Shown here: in pieces, positions 40,028 to 53,768 of the stretch
Layout of the letters: every line of letters begins with the position of its first letter
Numbering within the stretch: position 1 is the stretch's first letter
NCBI GenBank assembly: GCA_963697385.1
Contig: CAVONU010000006.1
Coordinates: forward strand, 13,424 to 77,423
Reading direction: 5' to 3'
DNA: 64,000 nucleotides
Source: an uncultured Acidimicrobiales bacterium
GTDB taxonomy: Bacteria; Actinomycetota; Acidimicrobiia; Acidimicrobiales; CAWCAL01
Made by a program: the position numbers and the translations under genes
Notes under the pieces: generated by a model
Seen by the model: the letters and a program-made list of their open reading frames with translations, nothing else
Told to the model about the DNA's origin: nothing
Databases searched by the model: none

Positions 40028-40777
40028 TCAACCCGTCTCCGCCCCGAGGATCCGCTCCTCGACCCGACGCAGCTGGTCGCCGGCGTCCACCCCGACCTCG
40101 CTCAGCGCCCGGTCCAGCCGGTGGCAGGCGCGTAGGGCGTCCACGCGGCGCTCGCTGCGGAGGAGCGCCTCGATGAGCAGATACCAGAGGTGCTCCCGAT
40201 AGGGATGCTCCTCGACCGCGCTCTCCAGCTCGGCCACCACGATCTCGTAGTTGCCGAGCGCCAGCTCCGCCTCCATCTCCAGCTCCATCACCCCGACGCG
40301 CAGCTCCTCCAGGCGTTGCGCCTCGAGTCGGAACGTCTCGTCGTCGTACAGATCCCCGAACGGATCGCCGCGCCAGAGCGCCAGGGCCTCCCGGCAGAGC
40401 GCCTGGCAGCGCTCCGGCTCCGAGCGGAACTCGGTGGCGCGGAGCAGCAGGTCCTCGAATCGCAGCGCGTCGATCTGATCGCGTCGCACCGCGAGGCGGT
40501 AGGCATGATCGACGTGCTCCAACACCTCGCCCCCGATCACGTGACGGACCCGGGAGACGTAGGTCTGCAGCGAGTTGTCCGCCGACCTGGGCGGCGAGTC
40601 ACCCCAGAGTCCCGCCCGCAGCCGGTCGATCGACACGGCCCGACCCGCACCCAGAACCAGCATGCCGAGCAGGGCGCGGCAGTGACGACTCCCGATCGGT
40701 TGGGCGCCAGTTTCGGTCAGCAGATCGATCGGTCCCAGTACCCGGATGACATCGTCGCGCCGCATCGTCGTATCCAA
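40028..40777 (-). CDS. SARP/AfsR-type regulator (wHTH + BTAD only)
   Basis: VLGPIDL, LWGDSPPRSADNSLQTYVSRVR, ALALWRGDPF, HPYREHLWYLLIEAL. Confidence 0.9.
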   Translation of the reverse strand: MDTTMRRDDVIRVLGPIDLLTETGAQPIGSRHCRALLGMLVLGAGRAVSIDRLRAGLWGDSPPRSADNSLQTYVSRVRHVIGGEVLEHVDHAYRLAVRRDQIDALRFEDLLLRATEFRSEPERCQALCREALALWRGDPFGDLYDDETFRLEAQRLEELRVGVMELEMEAELALGNYEIVVAELESAVEEHPYREHLWYLLIEALLRSERRVDALRACHRLDRALSEVGVDAGDQLRRVEERILGAETG

Positions 40778-41571: not shown

Positions 41572-43296
41572 ATGCCGGTCGACCCCAACGCCCCCCGTTC
41601 GCGGGCAGCCCGGCTGATGGATCACCTTCCGGCGACGGGATGGATGCGCAACTACGACCGAGCCGATCTTCGAGGCGATCTACTGGCCGCGCTCGTCATC
41701 ACGGCGTTGATGGTGCCCCAGTCACTGGGCTACGCAGCCCTCGCCGGGGCGCCCGTCCAAGCCGGGCTCTACGCGATCCCGTTGGCCCTGATCGCCTACG
41801 CGCTGTTGGGCTCGTCGCCCCAGCTGGTGGTCGGCCCGGTCTCGACCGTTTCGGTCCTGACCGGCTCCATCGTCGCCGCTCGGCGCCTGTTCGACCCGTC
41901 CGAAGCGCTCGCCGTGGTGACGACTCTGGCGATCATCTCCGGGGTGATCCTGCTGGTGGCCGGCCTCCTCCGGATCGGGTGGGTCGCCGAGTTCCTCTCC
42001 AAGCCGATCATCACCGGGTTCGTGTTCGGCCTCTCGATCGTGATCGTCATCGGAGAGTCCGCGACGTTGCTGGGGCTCCCCCGAGTGACGGGCAGTGCCT
42101 TCAACCAGGTACGGGGGATCGCCAGGAACATCGGCGATGTCGACGCCACGACCGCGGCCATCGGCGCCGTGACCCTGGCCGTGCTGTTCCTCGGCCCGAA
42201 GCTGAGTCGGGTCGTGCCGTGGGGACTGCTCATGGTCGTGGCGGGTCTGATCGGGTCCCGTATCGCCGATCTGGCCGCGGAGGGCGTCGCGGTGGTGGGC
42301 GACGTTCCCTCCGGCCTCCCAGCACCGAGCGTGCCCGACCTGGCGGCCTCCGAGGTAGCGCTTCTCGTGGTCAGCGGCGCCGCGCTCGCCATGGTGGGCC
42401 TGGCGGAGACGCTCAGCGCCGCCCGACTCTTCGCCGTGAGGAACGGCTACCAGATCAACGCGGATCAGGAGTTCGTCGCCACCGGCGTCGCCAATATCGC
42501 CGCCGGCTTCTCGGGTGGCCTCGGGGTCGGCGGCAGCCTGTCCAAGACCGCGGCCTCGGACAACGCCGGTGGCCGTTCGCAGGTCACCGGACTGGCGGCC
42601 ACGGTGCTCGTGCTGCTGGTCCTGCTCCTGTTCGCCTCGTCGCTCAGCACCCTGCCGCGCGCCGTGCTCTCCGCCGTCGTCATCCACGCCGTGTGGGGAC
42701 TGATGGACATCGGGGCCATCCGCCGGTACCGGCGGATCCGACGCAACGACTTCGTCGGCGCGATGGCGGCCCTGATCGGCGTCCTGGTCCTCGGCACGCT
42801 CTACGGCCTGCTGTTCGCCGTGGCGCAGTCGGTCCTCGGTCTGGTCTACCGCTCGGTGCAGGTCGAGGTCGACGTCATGGGCAAGGTCGAGGGCGAGAAG
42901 GCGGCGTGGGGATCCCTCGGCCGCAACCCCGCCCACCGCACCCAGGACGGCATCCTGATCCTGCGCCTCAGCGCTCCGCTGTTCTGGGTCAACGCCGCGA
43001 AGGCGTCGCAGCTGATCATGCAAGAGGTCCTGACGACCGCCGAGATGCCGCGGGCCGTGATCATCGATCTCGAGGCGACCAACCAGCTGGACACCACCAG
43101 CGCCGACGTCCTGCTCCAGCTCATCCAGCGACTCCAGCGCCGGGAGATCGACGTCTACCTGGTTCGGGTGATGTACCCGGCCCGTCGGGTGTTGCGCCGA
43201 ACCGGCGTCACCGACTTGATCGGCACCAGCCACATGTGGCGGACCATCTCCCAGGGGGTGAAGGCGGCGAAGCGCGCCGCGAAAGACGGGACGTGA
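41572..43296 (+). CDS. sulP: SulP/SLC26 anion transporter with STAS domain (intact)
   Basis: MVPQSLGYAALAG, GPVSTVS, DQEFVATG, GGSLSKT, PLFWVNA, IIDLEATNQLDTTS. Confidence 0.93.
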   Translation: MPVDPNAPRSRAARLMDHLPATGWMRNYDRADLRGDLLAALVITALMVPQSLGYAALAGAPVQAGLYAIPLALIAYALLGSSPQLVVGPVSTVSVLTGSIVAARRLFDPSEALAVVTTLAIISGVILLVAGLLRIGWVAEFLSKPIITGFVFGLSIVIVIGESATLLGLPRVTGSAFNQVRGIARNIGDVDATTAAIGAVTLAVLFLGPKLSRVVPWGLLMVVAGLIGSRIADLAAEGVAVVGDVPSGLPAPSVPDLAASEVALLVVSGAALAMVGLAETLSAARLFAVRNGYQINADQEFVATGVANIAAGFSGGLGVGGSLSKTAASDNAGGRSQVTGLAATVLVLLVLLLFASSLSTLPRAVLSAVVIHAVWGLMDIGAIRRYRRIRRNDFVGAMAALIGVLVLGTLYGLLFAVAQSVLGLVYRSVQVEVDVMGKVEGEKAAWGSLGRNPAHRTQDGILILRLSAPLFWVNAAKASQLIMQEVLTTAEMPRAVIIDLEATNQLDTTSADVLLQLIQRLQRREIDVYLVRVMYPARRVLRRTGVTDLIGTSHMWRTISQGVKAAKRAAKDGT

Positions 43297-43308: not shown

Positions 43309-46300
43309 TCAGCTGTTCGACCAGACCCGGTTGCTGTCCCCGTCGTTGGCGGCGACCGCGTCGAGATCGCCGTCCCCATCGAGATCCGCCAGGATCATGC
43401 CCTCCGTCGCATTACTCGCGAGCGTCTGGGTCGAGTCGGTGAACGTCCCGGTGCCGTCGTTGAGCCACACGGTGTTCGCCCCCACGTGATCGCCGAACAC
43501 GAGGTCCAGGTCGCCATCGCCGTCGAGGTCGCCGGCGTCGATCGAGCGGCTGTGACCGAGTCCCAGGATCTGGCCGGAATCGGTGAACGTCCCGGAGCCG
43601 TCGTTGAACCAGACGGTGTCACCCTCGTTGTCGCCCGCGAAGGCGATGTCCACATCTCCGTCCCCGTCCAGATCCCGGAGCACCGAATCGTGCGTCCGCC
43701 CGATGCCCAGCGCCTGCCCGCTGTCGCTGAACGTCCCCGCTCCATCGTTGAACCAGACGGTGTCATCGGCGCCGTCGTTCGAGAAGACGAGGTCGGGATC
43801 ATCGTCACCGTCCAGATCGGCGAACGACACGCCCGCGGTCGGCCCCGGTCCGAGGGACTGGCCGCTGTTCGAGAACGTACCGGACCCATCGTTGAGCCAC
43901 ACGGCGTTGGCCTGGCCGAGATTGCCGAACGACAGATCGAGATCGCCGTCGCCATCGACGTCGGCCACGGCGACATCCGTGGTGCGCGAATAGCCCAACG
44001 CCTGTCCGCTGTTCGTGAACGCCCCCATGCCGTCGTTGAACCAGACGGTGTTCGGCTCGGCGGCGTCGTTGGCGAACACGGCGTCGAGGTCACCGTCACC
44101 GTCCACGTCGCCCAGCGCCACCGCCAGGCTCCACGCGTTTCCGAGCGTCTGGGTCGAATCCGCGAACACCCCGGCACCGTTGTTGAACCACACGGTGTTG
44201 GGGCCGCCCTCGGTGGCGAAGACCGCGTCGAGATCTCCGTCGCCGTCGAGATCCCCGATCCCGACCCCACGCGAATTTCCCGAACCCAGATCCTGCCCGG
44301 TATCGGAGAAGCTCGCACCCGACGGGACGGTCGGCGAAGCGTCACACAGGTCGCCGATGCCGTCACCGTCGGTGTCCAGCTGCATGGGGTTGAAGTCGAA
44401 CGGGCAGTTGTCCACGCCGGCGGCGATCCCGTCGAAGTCCTCTGGCGGGCTGACGGCGACCACGACCGTCGCGCTGTCCTCGGTGCCGGCGTAGTCCCGA
44501 ATGGTGTAGGTGAACGCGTCGCCTACCGTCGCCGAGCCGTCATGGGTGTAGGTGGCGGTGCCGTCGCCGTTGTCGACGGCGGTCCCGTTCGTCCCGTCCG
44601 TGACATCGACGATCAACAGCGGACCGAGGTCGGGATTCAGGTCGTTCAACCGCAGGTCGACCGTGGTCGCCGATCCTCCCTGGCTCACGTCGAGGGTGTC
44701 GTCGGTGGCGACCGGCGGGTCGTAGGTCGGCAACACGCCCAGGGTGACCTTGCCCGACGTCGAGACGGCACCGGCCGGGTCGGTGATCGTGTACCTGAAC
44801 GAGTCGGTCCCGAAGAAGTCCGGATCCGGCGTGTAATGGAACGTTCCGTCCCCGTTGTTCACCAGCACCCCGTTGGCCACCGGCGACACCACGGCCGCGC
44901 TCGACGCCACCACCGGATGATCGACATCGGAGTCGTCCTCGGTCACGTCAGCGGTCGTGAACGCCGTGTCCTCCGCCGTGAGGAAACCCAGACCGCCGTC
45001 GGCGGAGACGATCGGCGGATCGTTGACGGACGACACCGTGAGGGTGACCGTGGCCGCAGCCGACACCGCCCCCGCCGGGTCCGTGATCGTGTACGTGAAT
45101 GCATCGGTCCCGAAGAAGTCCGGATCCGGCGTGTACGTGAACGTCCCGTCACCCTCGTTCACCAACCCACCGTCGGACACCGACGACACCACCGCCACAC
45201 TCGACGCCACCACCGGATGATCAACATCCGAGTCGTTCGCCGTCACATCACCCGTCGTGAACGCCACATCCTCCGACGTCACGAACCCCACCCCGCCGTC
45301 GTCTCCTGCGACCGGCGGGTCATTGACCCCGGTCACGACCAGGACCACCGTCGCCGGGTCGGACACCGCCCCCGCCGCATCCGTGATCGTGTACGTGAAC
45401 GCATCGGTCCCGAAGAACTCCGGATCCGGCGTGTACGTGAACGTCCCATCACCCTCGTTCACCAACCCACCATTGTTCGTTGGCGTGTCCACGGCCACAC
45501 TCGACGCCACCACCGGATGATCGGCATCGGAGTCGTTCGCCGTCACATCACCCGTCGTGAACGCCACATCCTCCGACGTCACGAACCCCACCCCGCCGTC
45601 GTCTCCTGCGACCGGCGGGTCATTGACCCCGGTCACGACCAGGACCACCGTCGCCGGGTCGGACACCGCCCCCGCCGCATCCGTGATCGTGTACGTGAAC
45701 GCATCGGTCCCGAAGAACTCCGCGTCCGGCGTGTACGTGAAGGTGCCGTCCCCGCTGTCGACGAGGTCGCCGTCGGTCACCGACGACACCACCGCCACAC
45801 TCGACGCCACCACGGGATGATCCACGTCGGAGTCGTTCGCGGTCACATCACCCGTCGTGAACCCGACATCCTCCGACGTCACGAACCCCACCCCGCCGTC
45901 GTCCCCCGCCACCGGCGCATCATTCACCGGCGACACCGTGAGGGTGACCGTGGCCGCAGCCGACACCGCCCCCGCCGCATCCGTGATCGTGTACGTGAAC
46001 GCATCGGTCCCGAAGAAGTCCGGATCCGGCGTGTACGTGAACGTCCCATCACCCTCGTTCACCAACCCACCATTGTTCGTTGGCGTGTCCACGGCGACAG
46101 AAGTCGCCACCACCGGATGATCGGCATCCGTGTCGTTGGCGGTCACATCACCCGTCGTGAACGCCACATCCTCCGACGTCACGAAGCCCACCCCGCCGTC
46201 GTCTCCTGCAACCGGCGGGTCGTTGACGACGACCACGACGATGGTCACCATGGCCGGCGCCGACACCGCCCCCGCCGCATCCGTGATCGTGTACGTGAAG

Positions 46301-49284
46301 GAGTCCGTCCCGAAGAACTCCGGGTCGGGGGTGTACGTGAAGGTGCCATCCCCGCTGTCGACGAGGTCGCCGTCGGTCACCGACGACACCACCGCCACAC
46401 TCGACGCCACCACGGGATGATCCACGTCGGAGTCGTTCGCGGTCACATCACCCGTCGTGAACGCCACATCCTCCGACGTCACGAACCCCACCCCGCCGTC
46501 GTCTCCTGCGACCGGCGGGTCGTTGACCCCGGTCACGACCAGGACCACCGTCGCCGGGTCGGACACCGCCCCCGCCGCATCGGTGATCGTGTACGTGAAC
46601 GCATCGGTCCCGAAGAAGTCCGGATCCGGCGTGTAGGTGAACGTCCCGTCACCCTCGTTCACCAACCCACCGTCGGTCACCGACGACACCACCGCCACAC
46701 TCGACGCCACCACCGGATGATCGGCATCGGAGTCGTTCGCCGTCACATCACCCGTCGTGAACGCCACCTCCTCCGACGTCACGAACGCGGGACCTCCATC
46801 ACCGACCGCAACCGGTGCATCGTTCACCGGCGACACGACCAACGTCACCGTCGCGGGTCCGGACACCGCCCCCGCCGGATCCGTGATCCGGTAAGTGAAC
46901 GAGTCCACGCCCCCGAACTCGGGATCCGGCGTGTAGCTGAAAGTTCCATCGCGGTGGTTGACCAGCATCCCGTCGCCGACCGACGACACCACCGCCACGC
47001 TCGACGGGACCACCGCATGGTCCAGGTCGCTGTCGTTCGCGGTCACGTCCGCAGTTCGGAACGTGGTGTCCTCGAGGGTGGTGAATCCGGCGCCCGAATC
47101 GGGAGCCGCCACCGGTGCGTCGTTGACCACGACCACGACGATCGTCACCCTCGCAGGCGCCGACACCGCACCCGACGGGTCGGTGATCGTGTAGGTGAAG
47201 GAGTCCGTCCCGAAGAACTCCGGGTCGGGGGTGTACACGAAACTGCCATCACCGTTGCGAACCAGCACTCCGTGCGTGACCGACGACACCACCGTGGCAC
47301 TCGCGGGCGCGACCGGATCGTCCGTATCCGAGTCGTTCGCGGTGACGTCGGGGGTGGTGAACGCGACGTCCTCGGCGGTGACGAATCCGGGCCCGGCATC
47401 ATCGACGGCCACCGGCACCTGGTTCACCGCCGGAGGTGGGTCGGGCGGTGCCGGGTCGGGCGGTGCCGGGTCGGGCGGTGTCGGGTCGGGATCCGGCGGG
47501 TCGGGTGTGGCGGGGAGCGGTTCCGGTGGGTCCTCGGGCAGCGTCGTGGGCGTCGGATCGGGTTCGGGATCGGCCGCCAGCACGGTGACGGACAACGACG
47601 CCGTCCCGCTCAGTCCGCCGGGATCGGTCACCGAGTAGCTGAGGACGTCCTGGCCGATGAACCCGCGCGGCGCTTCGTACTCGAGCCGATTCCCCGCGAC
47701 GGACACCGAACCCCTCCGAGGCGGTGACACGACCCGTACGGAGAGCGGATCACCGTCGACATCCCGGTCGTTGGCCGCGACGTCGATGATCGCCGTTTCG
47801 CCCGCGGTCAGCGCATGGCGGTCAGCGATCGGTACGGGTGCATCGTTCACGCCGGCGATCTCCGCGGTCACCGTCGCCGTCGCACACGCTCCGCCGCCGT
47901 CACAGGCGGTGTAGGTGAACCGATCGGAGCCGTGATAGTCGCGATCCGGGCGGTAGTGGACGTCGATCCCCCAGCCGCCGTCTCCGGTCGGCTCGACACC
48001 GAGGTCGGCGTCGGCGAGCGCCACCGTTCCGTGGTCGGGTCTCCCGAACGTGAACCGGCCGGGCCCTGACGGACCGACCGCCGTCAGCGTCGTCCCGATC
48101 AGGCCGTCCTCGCTCCCGGTCAGCGCGACGTCCTCCACCACCACCGAATCGGAAGCGACCGACGCCAGCGTGTCGGGCACCGCGGCACCACCGCCCACGA
48201 CCGATACCACGACCGCGATGGCTGCGGCGGCAGCGGCGGATGCGGCACTGAGCGCCGACCCGGCGACCGGGATCGGCGTCTGGCCGCTGCTGAGTCCGTT
48301 GACCAGCCACGTGAGCGGGCCGACGGCCGCACGGAGGCGACCGAGCCCGGCGTTGAGGAAGACCCGGACGATCGCCGGGTCGAACTGCGCGCCCGCACAG
48401 TCGGTCAGCTCCTGACGGGCGACCTCGTGCGACAGCGGCTTCTTGTAGCTGCGGGCGCTGGTCATCACGTCGTACGCGTCAGCGACGGCGACCATCCGAC
48501 CGGGCAGTGAGATCTCCAGCCCCTTCAGCCCGCCCGGGTACCCGTTGCCGTTCCAGTGGATGTGGTGCTGGTCCGCCGCGTGGATCCAATCGCCCAGCCA
48601 CTCGTGGAGCGGCTCGAGAATCGCTCCACCCGCGGTCGGATGGCCCTGCAGCACCTCCCACTCCTCGCTGGTCGGTGGGCCGTCCTTGTTGAGGATCTCG
48701 GCGGGAACGGTGAGCTTGCCGACGTCGTGCAGCAGGGCGCCCCAGCGAAGAAGGTTCATCTCGGACTCGGGCAGACCCATCTCCTCACCGATCACCTCGG
48801 TGTAGGCCCGGACCCGTTCGGAGTGACCGCGTGTCAGTCGATCATGATCGTTGATCGCCGTGACCAGGTCGGCCAGCATTGCGCCGTCGAGACCCTCGTC
48901 GGCCAGCTCACCCGCCTGGAGGCGCCGCACCAGGCTTCGGCCCGACGATGCCCGCAACGCGGCGCGGGCGCGTGACGGTGCCTGGTCCGGGAACACGAGG
49001 GTGAGCTGCATGAGCGCCACCAGCGGCAGGGCGCGACGGAACAGCCGCTGGAACAGGAGGACGATCACGGTCGACGCGACGAAGAGGCACGCGAGCCACA
49101 CCCACCGATTCATGCCGAGCTCGCCGGGTGGGGCGACGCGACCAACCCACCAGCTGAACAGGATGCTCACCACCAACGGGGCGAGGACCACCCCGAGGCG
49201 GAGCAGGCCGGCCAGGTTCGGGTGCGCGGTCCAGACCTTGGAGGGATCGGACTTGAGCTCCGCTCCCTTGGTGGGTCCGCTCAT
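43309..49284 (-). CDS. membrane-anchored HD-GYP phosphodiesterase with a giant ectodomain (Ig-like/cadherin-like repeats, TSP3 repeat, 7 FG-GAP repeats)
   Basis: Two N-terminal TMs; HSERV, LHDVGK, HHIHWNGNGYP, ADAYDVMTSARSYK; TM; about 12 VND.P.A..D Ig-like units; DNCP...QLDTDGDGIGDLCD; 7x DxDGDGDxD. Confidence 0.9.
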   Translation of the reverse strand: MSGPTKGAELKSDPSKVWTAHPNLAGLLRLGVVLAPLVVSILFSWWVGRVAPPGELGMNRWVWLACLFVASTVIVLLFQRLFRRALPLVALMQLTLVFPDQAPSRARAALRASSGRSLVRRLQAGELADEGLDGAMLADLVTAINDHDRLTRGHSERVRAYTEVIGEEMGLPESEMNLLRWGALLHDVGKLTVPAEILNKDGPPTSEEWEVLQGHPTAGGAILEPLHEWLGDWIHAADQHHIHWNGNGYPGGLKGLEISLPGRMVAVADAYDVMTSARSYKKPLSHEVARQELTDCAGAQFDPAIVRVFLNAGLGRLRAAVGPLTWLVNGLSSGQTPIPVAGSALSAASAAAAAAIAVVVSVVGGGAAVPDTLASVASDSVVVEDVALTGSEDGLIGTTLTAVGPSGPGRFTFGRPDHGTVALADADLGVEPTGDGGWGIDVHYRPDRDYHGSDRFTYTACDGGGACATATVTAEIAGVNDAPVPIADRHALTAGETAIIDVAANDRDVDGDPLSVRVVSPPRRGSVSVAGNRLEYEAPRGFIGQDVLSYSVTDPGGLSGTASLSVTVLAADPEPDPTPTTLPEDPPEPLPATPDPPDPDPTPPDPAPPDPAPPDPPPAVNQVPVAVDDAGPGFVTAEDVAFTTPDVTANDSDTDDPVAPASATVVSSVTHGVLVRNGDGSFVYTPDPEFFGTDSFTYTITDPSGAVSAPARVTIVVVVVNDAPVAAPDSGAGFTTLEDTTFRTADVTANDSDLDHAVVPSSVAVVSSVGDGMLVNHRDGTFSYTPDPEFGGVDSFTYRITDPAGAVSGPATVTLVVSPVNDAPVAVGDGGPAFVTSEEVAFTTGDVTANDSDADHPVVASSVAVVSSVTDGGLVNEGDGTFTYTPDPDFFGTDAFTYTITDAAGAVSDPATVVLVVTGVNDPPVAGDDGGVGFVTSEDVAFTTGDVTANDSDVDHPVVASSVAVVSSVTDGDLVDSGDGTFTYTPDPEFFGTDSFTYTITDAAGAVSAPAMVTIVVVVVNDPPVAGDDGGVGFVTSEDVAFTTGDVTANDTDADHPVVATSVAVDTPTNNGGLVNEGDGTFTYTPDPDFFGTDAFTYTITDAAGAVSAAATVTLTVSPVNDAPVAGDDGGVGFVTSEDVGFTTGDVTANDSDVDHPVVASSVAVVSSVTDGDLVDSGDGTFTYTPDAEFFGTDAFTYTITDAAGAVSDPATVVLVVTGVNDPPVAGDDGGVGFVTSEDVAFTTGDVTANDSDADHPVVASSVAVDTPTNNGGLVNEGDGTFTYTPDPEFFGTDAFTYTITDAAGAVSDPATVVLVVTGVNDPPVAGDDGGVGFVTSEDVAFTTGDVTANDSDVDHPVVASSVAVVSSVSDGGLVNEGDGTFTYTPDPDFFGTDAFTYTITDPAGAVSAAATVTLTVSSVNDPPIVSADGGLGFLTAEDTAFTTADVTEDDSDVDHPVVASSAAVVSPVANGVLVNNGDGTFHYTPDPDFFGTDSFRYTITDPAGAVSTSGKVTLGVLPTYDPPVATDDTLDVSQGGSATTVDLRLNDLNPDLGPLLIVDVTDGTNGTAVDNGDGTATYTHDGSATVGDAFTYTIRDYAGTEDSATVVVAVSPPEDFDGIAAGVDNCPFDFNPMQLDTDGDGIGDLCDASPTVPSGASFSDTGQDLGSGNSRGVGIGDLDGDGDLDAVFATEGGPNTVWFNNGAGVFADSTQTLGNAWSLAVALGDVDGDGDLDAVFANDAAEPNTVWFNDGMGAFTNSGQALGYSRTTDVAVADVDGDGDLDLSFGNLGQANAVWLNDGSGTFSNSGQSLGPGPTAGVSFADLDGDDDPDLVFSNDGADDTVWFNDGAGTFSDSGQALGIGRTHDSVLRDLDGDGDVDIAFAGDNEGDTVWFNDGSGTFTDSGQILGLGHSRSIDAGDLDGDGDLDLVFGDHVGANTVWLNDGTGTFTDSTQTLASNATEGMILADLDGDGDLDAVAANDGDSNRVWSNS
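44728..47427 (-). repeat. nine coding repeats with exact 300-bp periodicity
   Basis: Unit starts at 47427, 47127, 46827 ... 45027; central units are near-identical (e.g. lines 45241, 45541, 45841, 46141, 46441, 46741). Confidence 0.95.
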
Positions 49285-49478
49285 GGCCGGACGACGTGGG
49301 GTCGGCAAGAACGCCCGAACGCGACAACGGGCCCACGTCCGGGTCGGTTGTCGTCCATCACGTCGAACTCCGTCGGTTCACTCCCGCCGTCTCACGGGAC
49401 ACCTAGGGTCCATCGGTGGGATTCCAGGCGACTTGAGCCAGTTGGGCGGTTCGACCTGCGGCCGCTGAGGAGATCGAC

Positions 49479-51467
49479 TCAGCCGGTTTCGTCGACCACG
49501 ACGAGGATCGCTCCGGCCTCGACGGACTCCCCCTCCGCGACGGGCACCGCGGTCACGACGCCGGCCACGCTCGCCGTGACCGCGAGCTCCATCTTCATCG
49601 CCTCCATGACCACCAGGACGTCGCCCGCAGCGACCGTGTCGCCCACCTCGACGGAGACCGCCACGATCGTTCCCGGCATGGTCGCGACGGTTGAACCCGC
49701 GGCGGCCTGATCCTCGGGTTCGACGAACCGCGGGAGCCGACCCAGCACGATGCCTCCGCCGGCTCCCGTGACCGACACGAGGTCCTCGTGCACACGTACA
49801 TCCAGCTGTCGCCGGACCCCATCCACGGCCAGGTCCACCCGATCGGTGGAGATCCCGTGATCGACCGGATCGACCAGGTTCTGATCGTCGACCGACAGGT
49901 GGACCAGCCGGCCACGCTGGAATCGGTAGGCCACCTCGACCCGATCATCGCCCACCGAGAACGTGACTCGCTGGGGTGCGGTGACGACATTCCTGAACCC
50001 GGTGCTCACACTGGCCGTATGAGGATCGGTCCCACGATGATCGGCTTGGATCGCCAGCGCCGCCGCTGACGCGTAGACGGCGCGCTCGTCTCCTTCGATC
50101 AGCGGACGGCCCATCGCCGCCGGGTCGTTCCGCTCCAGGAACTGGCTGTCGCCCCGGTCCCCCAGGAACTCGCCGTGGCGCAACGTTCGCACGAGCAGCT
50201 CGCGGTTGGTCGTGATGCCGTCGATGGTGGCCGACGCCAGCGACGACGCCAGTCGGTGCGCCGCCGTGTCGCGGGTCGGGGAATGAGCGATGACCTTGGC
50301 GATCATCGGGTCGTAGTACTGCGTCACCTCGCCACCGCCCTCGAGCGACGAGTCGAGGCGGACCCGACCGGGTACCGCGAAGCGATGCACCATGCCGGTG
50401 GACGGACGGAAGTCGGCCGTGGGGTCCTCGGCATAGAGTCGGGCCTCGATCGCGTGGCCGGACACCGGCCCGATCTCGTCCTGGGCCGGCACCGTCCCGC
50501 CGGCCGCGACCTCGAGCTGGAGCTCGACCAGGTCGACGCCCAGCACGGCCTCGGTCACCGGGTGTTCCACCTGGAGGCGGGTGTTGACCTCGAGGAAGAA
50601 GAACTCGGCTCGGCCGTCCGGCCCGGGCGGAGCGAGCAGGAATTCGACGGTGCCCGCGTTGGTGTACCCGATCGCTTCGCCGGCACGGACCGCCGCCTGG
50701 TGGAGCGAGCGGCGCGTCTCGGCGTCCAGCGACGGGCTGGGCGCCTCCTCGATGATCTTCTGGTGCCGTCGCTGGATCGAGCACTCGCGCTCGTGGAAGT
50801 GGACGACCCGGCCCGAGGAGTCGCCGAAGATCTGCACCTCGACGTGACGGGACGGAGCGACGTACCGCTCGGCGTAGACCGTGCCGTCGCCGAACGCCGA
50901 CTGAGCTTCGCGGGAGGCGCCCGTCACCGCGTCGAGGAGCTCGTCGGCCGACGCCACGATACGCATGCCCCGGCCCCCGCCCCCGGCGGACGCCTTGACC
51001 AGGATCGGGTACCCCACCTGGTCGGCCGCGGCCTTGATGCCCTGGTCGTCGAGTCCCGTGAGATCAGCCGACGGCAACAGCGGGACCCGGGCGTCGGTCA
51101 TACGCTGTTTCGCCTCGAGCTTCGAGCCCATCGCCGCGATCACCTCGGGGGAGGGGCCGACGAACACCAGCCCGGCGTCGCCGACCGCCCGCGCGAACGA
51201 GGCGTTCTCGGCCAGGAAGCCGTACCCCGGATGGACCGCGTCGGCGCCCGTCCGGGCCGCGGCATCGAGCATGGCGTCGACCCGCAGATAGGACTCGGCC
51301 GGCGTCACTCCACCGATCGCCACGGAGAGGTCGGCGTCCTGCACGAACGCCGCGTCGGCGTCAGCGTCGGAGAACACCGCGACCGTTTCGACCCCGAGGG
51401 CGCGGCAGGTGCGCATGATGCGCCGGGCGATCTCGCCCCGATTGGCGATGAGCAGTCGTTCGATCAT
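49479..51467 (-). CDS. acyl-CoA carboxylase alpha subunit (biotin carboxylase + BCCP), AccA2/AtuF-like
   Basis: LIANRGEIA, HPGYGFLAEN, KASAGGGGRGMR, RECSIQRRHQK, EAMKME biotinylation site. Confidence 0.95.
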   Translation of the reverse strand: MIERLLIANRGEIARRIMRTCRALGVETVAVFSDADADAAFVQDADLSVAIGGVTPAESYLRVDAMLDAAARTGADAVHPGYGFLAENASFARAVGDAGLVFVGPSPEVIAAMGSKLEAKQRMTDARVPLLPSADLTGLDDQGIKAAADQVGYPILVKASAGGGGRGMRIVASADELLDAVTGASREAQSAFGDGTVYAERYVAPSRHVEVQIFGDSSGRVVHFHERECSIQRRHQKIIEEAPSPSLDAETRRSLHQAAVRAGEAIGYTNAGTVEFLLAPPGPDGRAEFFFLEVNTRLQVEHPVTEAVLGVDLVELQLEVAAGGTVPAQDEIGPVSGHAIEARLYAEDPTADFRPSTGMVHRFAVPGRVRLDSSLEGGGEVTQYYDPMIAKVIAHSPTRDTAAHRLASSLASATIDGITTNRELLVRTLRHGEFLGDRGDSQFLERNDPAAMGRPLIEGDERAVYASAAALAIQADHRGTDPHTASVSTGFRNVVTAPQRVTFSVGDDRVEVAYRFQRGRLVHLSVDDQNLVDPVDHGISTDRVDLAVDGVRRQLDVRVHEDLVSVTGAGGGIVLGRLPRFVEPEDQAAAGSTVATMPGTIVAVSVEVGDTVAAGDVLVVMEAMKMELAVTASVAGVVTAVPVAEGESVEAGAILVVVDETG

Positions 51468-51474
51468 CGGCCCC

Positions 51475-53073
51475 TCACATCCGGAACACGCCGTAGCCGC
51501 GTCGGCCCCGGCATTCGTTGGTGAGCACCGCCGACAGCGCGACGCCCAGGACGTCGCGGGTGTCGCGGGGATCGATCAGGCCGTCGTCGTAGAGCTGACC
51601 GGACATCACCGCCGCCTGCTCCTCGTGGGTGATCTGATCCTCGATGGCCTTGGTGCGCGCCGCGTCGGCCTCCTCGTCGAAGGGAATACCGCGATCCTCG
51701 GCCGACGCGCGCGCCACGATGGACAACGTGCCCGCCAGCTGCTCCGCCCCCATGACCGCGGTCTTCGCGTTGGGCCAGACGAAGAGGAAACGCGGGTTGT
51801 AGGGCCGACCGGCCATCCCGTAGTTGCCCGCGCCATAGGACCCACCGATCTGGACGGTCAGGTGGGGCACGGTGCTGTTGGTGACCGCGTTGATCTGGTG
51901 CGAGCCGTGCTTGACCATGCCGCGTTGCTCGTACTCGGTCCCGACCATGTAGCCGGTGACGTTCTGGACGAAGAGCAGCGGGGTGTCGACCTGGTTGGCC
52001 AGCTGGATGAACTGGGCCGCCTTGTTGGCGTCCTCGTTCAGCAGCACGCCGCGGTCGTTGGCCAGGATGCCGACCGAGTATCCGTGCAGGTGGGCGAACC
52101 CCGTGACGAGATTGGGCCCGTAGCCGGGTTTGAACTCGTCGAACTCCGAGTCGTCCACGACCCGGGCCAACACCTCACGGACCGGGAACGGCACCTTCAG
52201 ATCGGCGGACACGATGCCCAGGATCTCGTCGGGGTCGTAGCGCGGCGGGACCGAGGTGCGATCGGGAGGTGGGCCCAGCTTGCGGTAGGTGAGGCCGTGC
52301 ACGATCTGGCGACCCAGGCGGATGGCGTCGTACTCATCGACCGCGAAGTAGTCGGACACCCCCGACACCGTCGAGTGCATCGACGCTCCGCCCAACTCCT
52401 CTTCGTCCGCGTCCTCCCCTGTGGCCATCTTGACCAGGGGCGTGCCACCGAGGAACACCTTGGCCTGGTGGTCGACCATGACCACGTAGTCGCTGGTACC
52501 CGGAAGATAGGCGCCGCCGGCGGTGGAGCTGCCGAACACCAGCGAGACGGTGGGAATCCCCGCGGCGGACAGCGCGGTGATGTCGCGGAACACCTCACCG
52601 GCACCCAGGTAGAGCTGGAGTTGATGGGGCAGATCGGCTCCGCCCGACTCGACCAGGAACACCATCGGGAGCCGGTTCTCGTGACAGATCCGCAGGGCGC
52701 GGAGGATCTTGCGCACCGTGATGGGATTCATCGAGCCACCCCGGACCGTCGGATCGTTGGCGAGGATCATGCACTCGGTCCCGGACACCTGACCGATCCC
52801 CGTGACCAGCGCCGCCCCGACGGCGAACTCGGTGTCGGCCGCAGCGGTCACCGACAACTCGAGGAAGGGGGCGTCGGGATCGACCAGCAGCTCGATCCGC
52901 TCGCGCACCAACAGCCGACCGCGGTCGTGGTGTCGGGTGCGGTACTTCTCGCCGCCTCCGTCCACGGCCTGGGCCACCAGCGCCCGGTACCGGTCGAGGT
53001 GGGCCTCCATCGCCTTCCGATTGGCGAGGAAGGTCTCGCTGCGTGGATCCAGGTTGGATCGCAGGATGCTCAT
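51475..53073 (-). CDS. acyl-CoA carboxylase beta subunit (carboxyltransferase), AccD2/AtuC-like
   Basis: ANDPTVRGG, ESGGADL, STAGGAYLPG, ELGGASMH, GFAHLHG, SYGAGNYGM. Confidence 0.95.
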   Translation of the reverse strand: MSILRSNLDPRSETFLANRKAMEAHLDRYRALVAQAVDGGGEKYRTRHHDRGRLLVRERIELLVDPDAPFLELSVTAAADTEFAVGAALVTGIGQVSGTECMILANDPTVRGGSMNPITVRKILRALRICHENRLPMVFLVESGGADLPHQLQLYLGAGEVFRDITALSAAGIPTVSLVFGSSTAGGAYLPGTSDYVVMVDHQAKVFLGGTPLVKMATGEDADEEELGGASMHSTVSGVSDYFAVDEYDAIRLGRQIVHGLTYRKLGPPPDRTSVPPRYDPDEILGIVSADLKVPFPVREVLARVVDDSEFDEFKPGYGPNLVTGFAHLHGYSVGILANDRGVLLNEDANKAAQFIQLANQVDTPLLFVQNVTGYMVGTEYEQRGMVKHGSHQINAVTNSTVPHLTVQIGGSYGAGNYGMAGRPYNPRFLFVWPNAKTAVMGAEQLAGTLSIVARASAEDRGIPFDEEADAARTKAIEDQITHEEQAAVMSGQLYDDGLIDPRDTRDVLGVALSAVLTNECRGRRGYGVFRM

Positions 53074-53768
53074 GGGGAGCCCACCGCACCGCGCTCCAGC
53101 GAAGCCGAGAGCTCGTCGAGCCGGTCGGCCACCGTCTCGAGCTTCTGCAGATTCAGGTCGAGCGATCGGCCCGGATCGGTCGAAGCCGTGGCCTCGATCC
53201 CACCGCACACCACAGCGAACAACTGGTCGGTGGTGGTGTCCAGGTCGATGCCGCGGTGACCGCTGAGCGCGCTCCAGGCCAAGTGCTCGATGCTGCCGTA
53301 GACCATGTCGCGGACCAGCTCGGCCGGAACGTCGTCGCGGAAGTCGCCCCGCGCCGCGCCGTCGCGGTACGCATCGACGAACAGCGACGTGTACCGGCGG
53401 CTCAGCTGAGCCACCTCGGACTCGTAGTAGTCGTCGAACGATCGAGCCTCGCTGATGATCAGGCGGCACAGCAGCGGATCGTGGGCCATGGCCTCGAGCT
53501 GGCGCCGGATCAGGAACCGAACCCGCTCTCGGGGTGCATCGATGGACGCCACGCCGGCGGTGGCCGACTCGATCAGCGGCTCGTAGAACGATCGGATCAC
53601 CTGATGGAGCAGATCCCGCTTGGACGGGAAGTGCCGGTAGATCGCACCCTCGACCACGCCGACCCGGCGGGCGATCTCGGCGACCGACGTGGCGTCGTAC
53701 CCGTCGTCACCGAAACGCTCCCGCGCCACCTCGAGGATCTGCCCGGCGGTGGAGTGAGTCTTCCTCAC
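53070..53768 (-). CDS. TetR-family regulator
   Basis: TSVAEIARRVGVVEGAIYRHFPSKRDL; stop overlaps the carboxyltransferase ATG. Confidence 0.92.
   Translation of the reverse strand: MRKTHSTAGQILEVARERFGDDGYDATSVAEIARRVGVVEGAIYRHFPSKRDLLHQVIRSFYEPLIESATAGVASIDAPRERVRFLIRRQLEAMAHDPLLCRLIISEARSFDDYYESEVAQLSRRYTSLFVDAYRDGAARGDFRDDVPAELVRDMVYGSIEHLAWSALSGHRGIDLDTTTDQLFAVVCGGIEATASTDPGRSLDLNLQKLETVADRLDELSASLERGAVGSP

Follow-up and report, generated by a model that had tools for sequence, protein, structure and literature searches.

A putative contact receptor in Acidimicrobiales: an HD-GYP phosphodiesterase on one chain with a giant adhesin-like arm

The window analysed here is a 64,000-nucleotide stretch of DNA from an uncultured Acidimicrobiales bacterium of sediment (contig CAVONU010000006.1 of assembly GCA_963697385.1, positions 13,424 to 77,423). 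On its minus strand, one gene joins an HD-GYP phosphodiesterase domain, predicted to be held in the cytoplasm between transmembrane (TM) helices, to an adhesin-like arm of about 1,600 amino acids (aa) that is predicted to lie outside the cell and ends in a seven-blade FG-GAP beta-propeller. Judged by its sequence, the protein may be a receptor-type phosphodiesterase tuned by contact, tension or clustering, a reading that we put forward tentatively and rate as somewhat short of probable. Its parts are all of known kinds, namely an HD-GYP domain, tandem-95 repeats and an FG-GAP propeller. It is their union for which the literature searched holds no description, and the position of an enzyme loop upstream of a giant C-terminal ectodomain is unusual. 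The features of the gene are listed below; residue numbers count from an in-frame TTG at 49308 (subtract 8 for the ATG start) unless ATG numbering is stated, while the residue-alignment summary of motifs and the AlphaFold2 (AF2) model of the N-terminal part were numbered from the ATG.

43309..49284, minus strand: whole gene, ATG at 49284 and stop at 43309-43311, 1,991 aa
49216..49284, minus strand: predicted cytoplasmic N-tail with the subfamily motif GPTxGAE, net charge +3
49159..49215, minus strand: TM1, aa 32-50, Kyte-Doolittle hydropathy 2.31, helix in the AF2 model
49048..49104, minus strand: TM2, aa 69-87, Kyte-Doolittle hydropathy 2.18, helix in the AF2 model
48970..48999, minus strand: juxtamembrane motif LVFPDQAPSR, with F, P, P and R in 226-227 of 228 family members
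48370..48861, minus strand: HD-GYP domain, binuclear type, aa 150-313, Pfam HD_5 (PF13487), 3.8e-32
48298..48321, minus strand: pre-TM3 motif GPLTWLVN, with G in 224, P in 211 and W in 190 of 228 family members
48175..48255, minus strand: TM3, aa ~352-378, Ala/Val/Gly-rich, Kyte-Doolittle hydropathy 2.27, Arg before and Asp/Glu after
47578..48141, minus strand: cadherin-like repeats 1-2, aa ~390-577, from Pfam and NCBIfam
47419..47577, minus strand: Pro/Asp-rich hinge, aa 578-630, 53 aa, read directly, with in-frame length variation between strains
44428..47418, minus strand: ten cadherin-like tandem-95 repeats of exactly 100 aa each, aa 631-1627, from NCBIfam and a period of 300 nucleotides (nt)
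44341..44412, minus strand: single TSP3-like calcium-binding motif with two Cys, aa 1633-1656, from direct reading and the subfamily consensus
43312..44310, minus strand: seven-blade FG-GAP beta-propeller, aa ~1667-1999, Pfam FG-GAP_3, 1.2e-44 (151 bits)

That enzyme and arm form one gene had been proposed in the original prediction, made from the letters of the window, and the present analysis upholds it. The open reading frame is single and uninterrupted (43309..49308, minus strand) and would give 1,999 aa if begun at the TTG at 49308, 8 aa further upstream. The homologues begin a few residues ahead of the GPTxGAE motif, so that the ATG at 49284, which the prediction had also used, is the likely start. 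The interval 46900-49400 is tiled by Logan contigs that come from the metagenome runs of three separate studies, and across the HD-GYP domain, TM3 and the first repeats they show no frame-breaking gap; two of them, X2 (1,288 nt) and X1 (995 nt), run gap-free from the GYP motif through TM3 into the first repeats, and a 2-nt gap is present in one low-depth contig. The strain represented in X3 diverges by ~3-5% over the same interval, and its only indels, of 15 nt and 6 nt, are in-frame and both lie in the Pro-rich hinge. A frameshift or stop between the domains was looked for in these independent contigs, and none was found across the junction of enzyme and ectodomain. Further, a syntenic ortholog (locus L003, 1818-6275) has the same architecture in 1,485 aa, with about five fewer repeats. 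An assembly or frameshift artefact is ruled out by the independent contigs, by this ortholog and by hundreds of fused homologues. The ratio of nonsynonymous to synonymous substitution (dN/dS) against the ortholog comes to 0.11 across the linker and HD-GYP domain, ~0.2 in the TM parts, 0.16 in repeats 1-2 and 0.24 in the tip; both the enzyme and the arm are therefore under purifying selection.

The HD_5 match scores 111.8 bits against a curated cut-off of 27.2. Sequence matches of the domain in the PDB are V-cGAP3, PmGH and PA4781 (phmmer, 4.3e-31 to 2.6e-24), and the best fold match of the module is PA4781 (4R8Z, 33% identity, Foldseek). Direct reading places HD at 194-195, HHIHWNGNGYP at 248-258 and RSYK at 286-289; together with three data sets, it bears out the earlier statement that HD, GYP and RxxK are present and that HHE reads HHI. 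The codons of HHI and of the GYP-loop Asn are identical in all three runs. The HD-GYP residues are H162, H194-D195, K198, H223, H248-H249, the GYP at 256-258, D277, D280, R286 and K289. In the alignment with PmGH (4MCW), D156, H162, H194, D195, K198, H223 and H248 are the counterparts of PmGH D183, H189, H221, D222, K225, H250 and H276, and H249, Y257, I266, D277, D280, R286 and K289 those of H277, Y285, I294, D305, D308, R314 and K317. As a separate observation, run X2 carries T>G at 48545 (window 48544-48546), which replaces Asn by Thr at the variable position (x) of GxGYP in a strain that is otherwise near-identical.

How far these residues matter can be judged from a residue table built over the N-terminal modules (N-modules) of 228 homologues, and from published work on PmGH. 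The counterparts of PmGH H189, H221, D222, K225, H250, H276, H277, Y285, I294, D305 and R314 are 100% invariant, which means that the seven binuclear metal ligands, the catalytic Lys, GYP, and the I294 and R314 counterparts are kept in 228/228. At the D183 and D308 counterparts, 220 members carry Asp and 8 carry Glu in each case; with such equal counts the two positions may covary. In PmGH, Ala at the metal ligands H189, H221, D222, H250, H276 and H277 essentially abolishes activity, substitutions of D183, K225 and D308 are similar in effect, D305A and E185A cause a marked reduction with residual activity, and changes in GYP, I294, R314 and K317 cost little (PMC4159591). The position of E185 is Leu here, and Glu is found there in 0/228 relatives; this assigns the family to the binuclear subgroup together with PA4781, and no third metal would be expected. 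Because none of the 228 departs from the metal ligands, the Lys, GYP or the substrate Arg, the family reads as catalytic and not as a dead receptor of the DvhD type; with HD and HH kept as well, the latter is ruled out. An inactive HD-GYP domain had been named beforehand among the results that would undo the prediction. By its residues the active site of this copy is intact apart from the GYP loop, and the copy probably retains activity; its loop may differ in stability or in the binding of partners.

The comparison with DvhD also bears on one alternative, in which control runs inside-out, in the style of integrins or of LapD and DvhD. Here the HD-GYP domain would be a c-di-GMP (cyclic di-GMP) sensor or trigger enzyme that sets the oligomerisation or presentation of the arm, which we consider quite improbable. 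DvhD of Desulfovibrio vulgaris (9RBZ/9RC0) provides the precedent, being a membrane HD-GYP protein tied functionally to giant repeat adhesins, which it controls as a c-di-GMP receptor (PMC13090378); its HD-GYP domain is a structural match to the one here and a good one (9RBZ, TM-score to target 0.74-0.78), and the atypical GYP loop of this copy would suit such a role. However, DvhD is catalytically dead (HD changed to SQ, HH to MN), metal-free and without c-di-GMP hydrolysis (PMC13090378), whereas the residues it has lost are invariant here and in the 228 relatives, and the site here is intact by sequence. DvhD has periplasmic and PAS domains and acts on a separate adhesin via the protease DvhG (PMC13090378), whereas here the arm is on the same chain and no protease gene is adjacent. 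LapD-LapG-LapA (PMC5231407) likewise links cytoplasmic c-di-GMP across the membrane to a giant repeat adhesin, but it is a three-protein diderm system built on a degenerate GGDEF-EAL receptor, and those domains and partners are absent here; neither a LapG-like protease nor any other partner was found near the gene. Further, a single weak TM helix would hardly be able to alter a hinged arm of 1,600 aa.

A contact receptor of the kind proposed would need its enzyme and its arm on opposite sides of the membrane, as the original prediction had them, and the distribution of charge fits this arrangement and gives no indication of a same-side topology. The single TM segment of that prediction did not hold, and three segments are now recognised, two of them strong and N-terminal, the third weaker. 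The outside loop between TM1 and TM2 is 18 aa long. Net charge is +3 in the N-tail, +3 after TM2, +2 before TM3 and -6 after TM3, and the ectodomain carries a net charge of -246 (14.6% Asp, 0.1% Lys). Among 121 homologues, an uncharged stretch is found at equal distance past the HD motif, with a median best 19-residue hydropathy of 1.69 and a value >=1.3 in 98%, typically with Arg/Lys before it and Asp/Glu after it. The charge pattern and the uncharged segment past the enzyme together place the N-terminus and the HD-GYP domain inside and the arm outside; a three-pass protein whose HD-GYP domain is the cytoplasmic loop between TM2 and TM3 is thus well supported at the level of sequence. The juxtamembrane motif LVFPDQAPSR has low pLDDT in the AF2 model.

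The membrane part itself could be the seat of regulation, and this defines a second alternative: the phosphodiesterase would respond through the TM bundle or the N-tail, to the state of the membrane or to a diguanylate cyclase on the GYP loop, and the arm would have a separate job such as binding matrix or cell wall. There are minimal members of the family that consist of three TM helices and HD-GYP only, and P36 within TM1 and W63 where TM2 begins (ATG numbering) are nearly invariant. The GYP loop of RpfG is known to bind GGDEF proteins (PMC4159591). Regulation of this kind leaves unexplained, however, why the arm sits on the same chain in hundreds of lineages, under purifying selection, and we regard this account, too, as rather far from likely.

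The arm was described earlier as about 12 Ig-like units with a Pro-rich hinge, and it is indeed made up of 2 + 10 cadherin-like repeats split by the hinge: Pfam finds 12 Big_9/Cadherin_5 stretches (PF17963, 564 bits) and NCBIfam 12 copies of tandem-95 (NF012211, 655 bits). Among the central six repeats, mutual identity is 78-91% in both DNA and protein. With such identity the exact repeat number is uncertain in a short-read assembly, while the fusion is unaffected. By the same comparison, the central repeats were amplified recently. The stalk changes quickly in length between close relatives (1,485 versus 1,991 aa). The hinge, too, varies in steps between strains (47419-47577; 15 nt lost and 6 nt gained in X3) and has 15- and 30-nt tandem units inside it. 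Between the last repeat and the tip lies the motif DNCPFDFNPMQLDTDGDGIGDLCD (1633-1656), a Cys-flanked DxDxDGxGD that is conserved in the FG-GAP-tipped subfamily. Of the TSP3-type repeat claimed for this place, a motif of the calcium type that resembles the consensus by eye is what stands, since the Pfam TSP_3 profile gave no match at E<=0.01. No LPxTG, LAxTG or NPxTG sortase signal occurs in the protein, and the chain ends in the last propeller blade.

The tip carries seven DxDGDGDxD loops (D[LV]DGD[GD]D[LVP]D) at a spacing of 48 aa between 1686 and 1983, and an AF2 model of the last 400 residues is a seven-blade propeller (pLDDT 91.3, pTM 0.89). Foldseek retrieves CRTAC1 (9ETN, 4.8e-15), UmbA4 (9OEE, 2e-8) and integrin alpha-V (~1e-7). 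The seven blades of the integrin-alpha-like head foreseen in the original prediction are therefore there, but its nearest fold is CRTAC1; the best solved relatives are CRTAC1 and the EPTP domain of LGI1, and integrin alpha-V stands lower in the list. CRTAC1, integrin alpha and UmbA4 likewise have seven blades with calcium-type DxDxDG loops; identity to the tip is, however, only 12-20%, and the protein has no beta-subunit partner here. UmbA4 belongs to the Umb toxin particle of Streptomyces and has been solved with teichuronic acid (9OEE, 20% identity to the tip). By analogy, the binding of cell-wall glycopolymers by actinobacterial propellers of this kind is a lead.

The domain-architecture search proposed with the original prediction shows that the protein is no one-off. 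With the first 420 residues as query and the length filter of the whole protein retained, at least 294 proteins of 1,100-2,800 aa were found that combine HD_5 with Big_9/cadherin-like repeats, and their tips are FG-GAP, lamin-tail, NHL or PKD. Few sources of the long proteins are named (Acidimicrobiia, Acidimicrobiales, Ilumatobacteraceae, Actinomycetia, Gaiellaceae), and product names are uninformative. Database matches of 420-800 aa may be contig-truncated, several of them ending inside a repeat, and genomes were therefore inspected directly. An index-free search shows the N-module, matched along its length from TM1 to TM3, in proteins of 378 to 2,576 aa, the shortest of which may be contig fragments. 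In whole genomes it is present in 45/301 of those sampled from the class, in 29/136 genera, and, where 401 genomes were sampled across the phylum, in 20 that lie outside the class. A genome usually has one or two copies, in open frames mostly of 450-1,150 aa. Among the shorter forms, a complete genome (locus L006, 920-3334, plus strand) encodes 804 aa with a Ser/Thr/Ala-rich mucin-like linker, a run of ~20 Thr, 12 consecutive Asp and a small C-terminal domain of ~170 aa and unrecognised type, and L007 encodes 594 aa with a Pro/Thr-rich tail. Collectively, the sequences indicate that the constant unit is the three-TM HD-GYP enzyme and that the outer extension is modular, from nothing to more than 2,400 residues; the protein in the window is among the largest versions in a large, stand-alone family in Actinomycetota of the Acidimicrobiia type.

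Such modularity can be read in two ways. An enzyme output that stays constant while the outer modules vary (FG-GAP, lamin-tail, NHL, PKD) is what sensor families show, and it favours a receptor. Alternatively, the protein could be an adhesin with an enzymatic anchor and no allostery, its three-TM HD-GYP part serving as membrane anchor in a monoderm that uses no LPXTG here, which we take to be unlikely yet worth serious attention. No stronger claim is made for the consequence of this account, in which expression and localisation would be coupled 1:1 and each adhesin would bring along one phosphodiesterase as a local c-di-GMP sink or homeostatic brake. An anchor of this type agrees with the lack of an LPXTG-type motif, with the poorly conserved sequence of TM3, and with ectodomains that are swapped freely or missing on a constant enzyme. 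The fast change in repeat number and the recent amplification of the central repeats point the same way, as in ordinary adhesin stalks. However, one TM helix would do for anchoring, and near-invariant membrane-proximal motifs around the enzyme suggest more than a passive hold. The full catalytic site in all 228 relatives indicates that the enzyme matters, yet it is compatible with the anchor.

The tentatively favoured receptor-type phosphodiesterase can be pictured as follows. The enzyme would be tethered to the membrane on either side. Binding of the tip to a surface, or to a glycopolymer of a neighbouring cell, would load the arm or cluster the molecules; load or clustering would then alter the geometry of the HD-GYP dimer through TM3, the GPLxW motif before it and the FPDxxPxR motif after TM2, and the changed geometry would shift c-di-GMP hydrolysis locally. 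An action on dimer geometry is conceivable because HD-GYP enzymes work as dimers. We judge inhibition upon contact to be slightly more likely than activation, because c-di-GMP could then rise on attachment. In addition to the varied outer modules, the near-invariant juxtamembrane motifs that flank the enzyme on both sides speak for this reading, as do the intact fusion, the purifying selection on both halves, a genome with c-di-GMP machinery and the lack of a conserved neighbour in three loci. That genome holds 19 GGDEF and 11 EAL matches, which makes c-di-GMP the default substrate. V-cGAP3 and PmGH match the HD-GYP domain almost equally well, so that c-di-GMP and cGAMP are not separable by sequence and the latter is a possible substrate too. 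Only two HD-GYP proteins of the genome are clear, and a further HD_5 match is marginal and sits at the cut-off; the other clear match (G000:C6:277794-278198) lies outside the window in a 405-aa open frame.

Several points weigh against a contact-tuned enzyme. One concern is TM3, which is of low complexity, keeps its hydrophobicity but not its sequence across the family and is a low-confidence helix in the AF2 model; it is thus a weak basis for precise transmembrane signalling. Another is the stalk itself, since 12 domains with a hinge can transmit only force or clustering. Bacterial c-di-GMP enzymes usually carry their sensor domains at the N-terminus. Further, one member (locus L005, 932-2014, minus strand) is a protein of 360 aa with two TM helices, HD-GYP and a hydrophobic C-terminal segment followed by a stop, and has no ectodomain; such armless or linker-only members imply that the enzyme module is autonomous and the arm an add-on. 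The GYP loop is also unusual in this copy. The extended motif HHExxDGxGYPxxxxxxxI keeps its HH, G, GYP and Ile, while E has given way to I, and D to N, and HHIHWNGNGYP stands in place of the usual family loop HHERWDGxGYP (HHLHWDG in the ortholog L003). Ile at 250 is seen in 1/228 (Glu in 160, Cys in 47, others in 21), His at 251 in 5/228 (Arg in 207) and Asn at 253 in 5/228 (Asp in 220). In Bd1817 this Glu serves to stabilise the backbone of the loop rather than to bind metal, and the Asp position is Asn in that protein as well (PMC3188283). As the Glu replaced here has that stabilising role in Bd1817, this copy could be weakened, although the changes spare the metal ligands. Finally, no RNA run contains the stretch of the gene.

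The surroundings of the gene point to no fixed partner. Upstream on the same strand lies a biotin carboxylase and carboxyltransferase pair resembling methylcrotonyl-CoA carboxylase (49479-53469, minus strand); on the other side are a SulP-STAS anion permease convergent with the gene (41572-43296, plus strand) and a SARP/BTAD-type regulator (40028-40777, minus strand). At the L003 locus the carboxylase is upstream and the SulP permease downstream, and the BTAD regulator is also present. A conserved operon partner is ruled out, the neighbours differing among the window and the more distant loci L001 and L002 and only the close ortholog L003 being syntenic. No riboswitch, including those for c-di-GMP, or other Rfam RNA was found at E<=1 in 49200-49600, and nothing informative emerged from promoter and terminator consensus around the gene.

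Among characterised proteins, PA4781 (4R8Z) and V-cGAP3 (5Z7C), which are binuclear, and the trinuclear PmGH (4MCW) share fold and sequence family with the HD-GYP domain here. They are, however, soluble proteins under the control of REC or GAF domains at the N-terminus, whereas here the enzyme is a TM-flanked cytoplasmic loop followed by an outer arm of 1,600 aa; PmGH differs further in its E185, which is Leu here, and in its loop, HHExxDG as against HHIHWNG. Known extracytoplasmic sensors of HD-GYP and other c-di-GMP enzymes are, as a rule, compact ligand-binding domains N-terminal to the enzyme, whereas the outer part here is C-terminal, fibrillar and adhesin-like. What the two have in common is an outer domain, TM helices and a cytoplasmic enzyme in one component (PMC8846402). 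No published description of an HD-GYP domain fused to such an adhesin-like ectodomain was found in the literature searched.

How bacteria sense the touch of a surface is poorly understood, and the known routes to c-di-GMP are indirect and need several proteins. In a 2022 census of sensory inputs to c-di-GMP, surface sensing comprised only the Wsp apparatus, type IV pili and the flagellum (PMC8846402). More boldly, the protein might be a single-chain adhesion receptor or mechanoreceptor, in which a swappable tip on a calcium-stiffened, length-adjustable stalk gates a membrane-clamped HD-GYP dimer; we hold this fuller version to be doubtful. It is with the same doubt that one might see in it, by analogy with integrins and eukaryotic receptor-type enzymes, a fourth and direct route from contact with surfaces or other cells to c-di-GMP beside these three. 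If true, no contact sensor could be simpler than a single chain that carries both the adhesive tip and the enzyme degrading the messenger. Members of the family are widely distributed among the abundant, uncultured Acidimicrobiia of sediment, soil and aquatic habitats, whose surface biology and second-messenger signalling are, to our knowledge, almost unstudied. Even without allosteric coupling, an enzyme-anchored adhesin would represent a new tie between adhesin dosage and c-di-GMP turnover.

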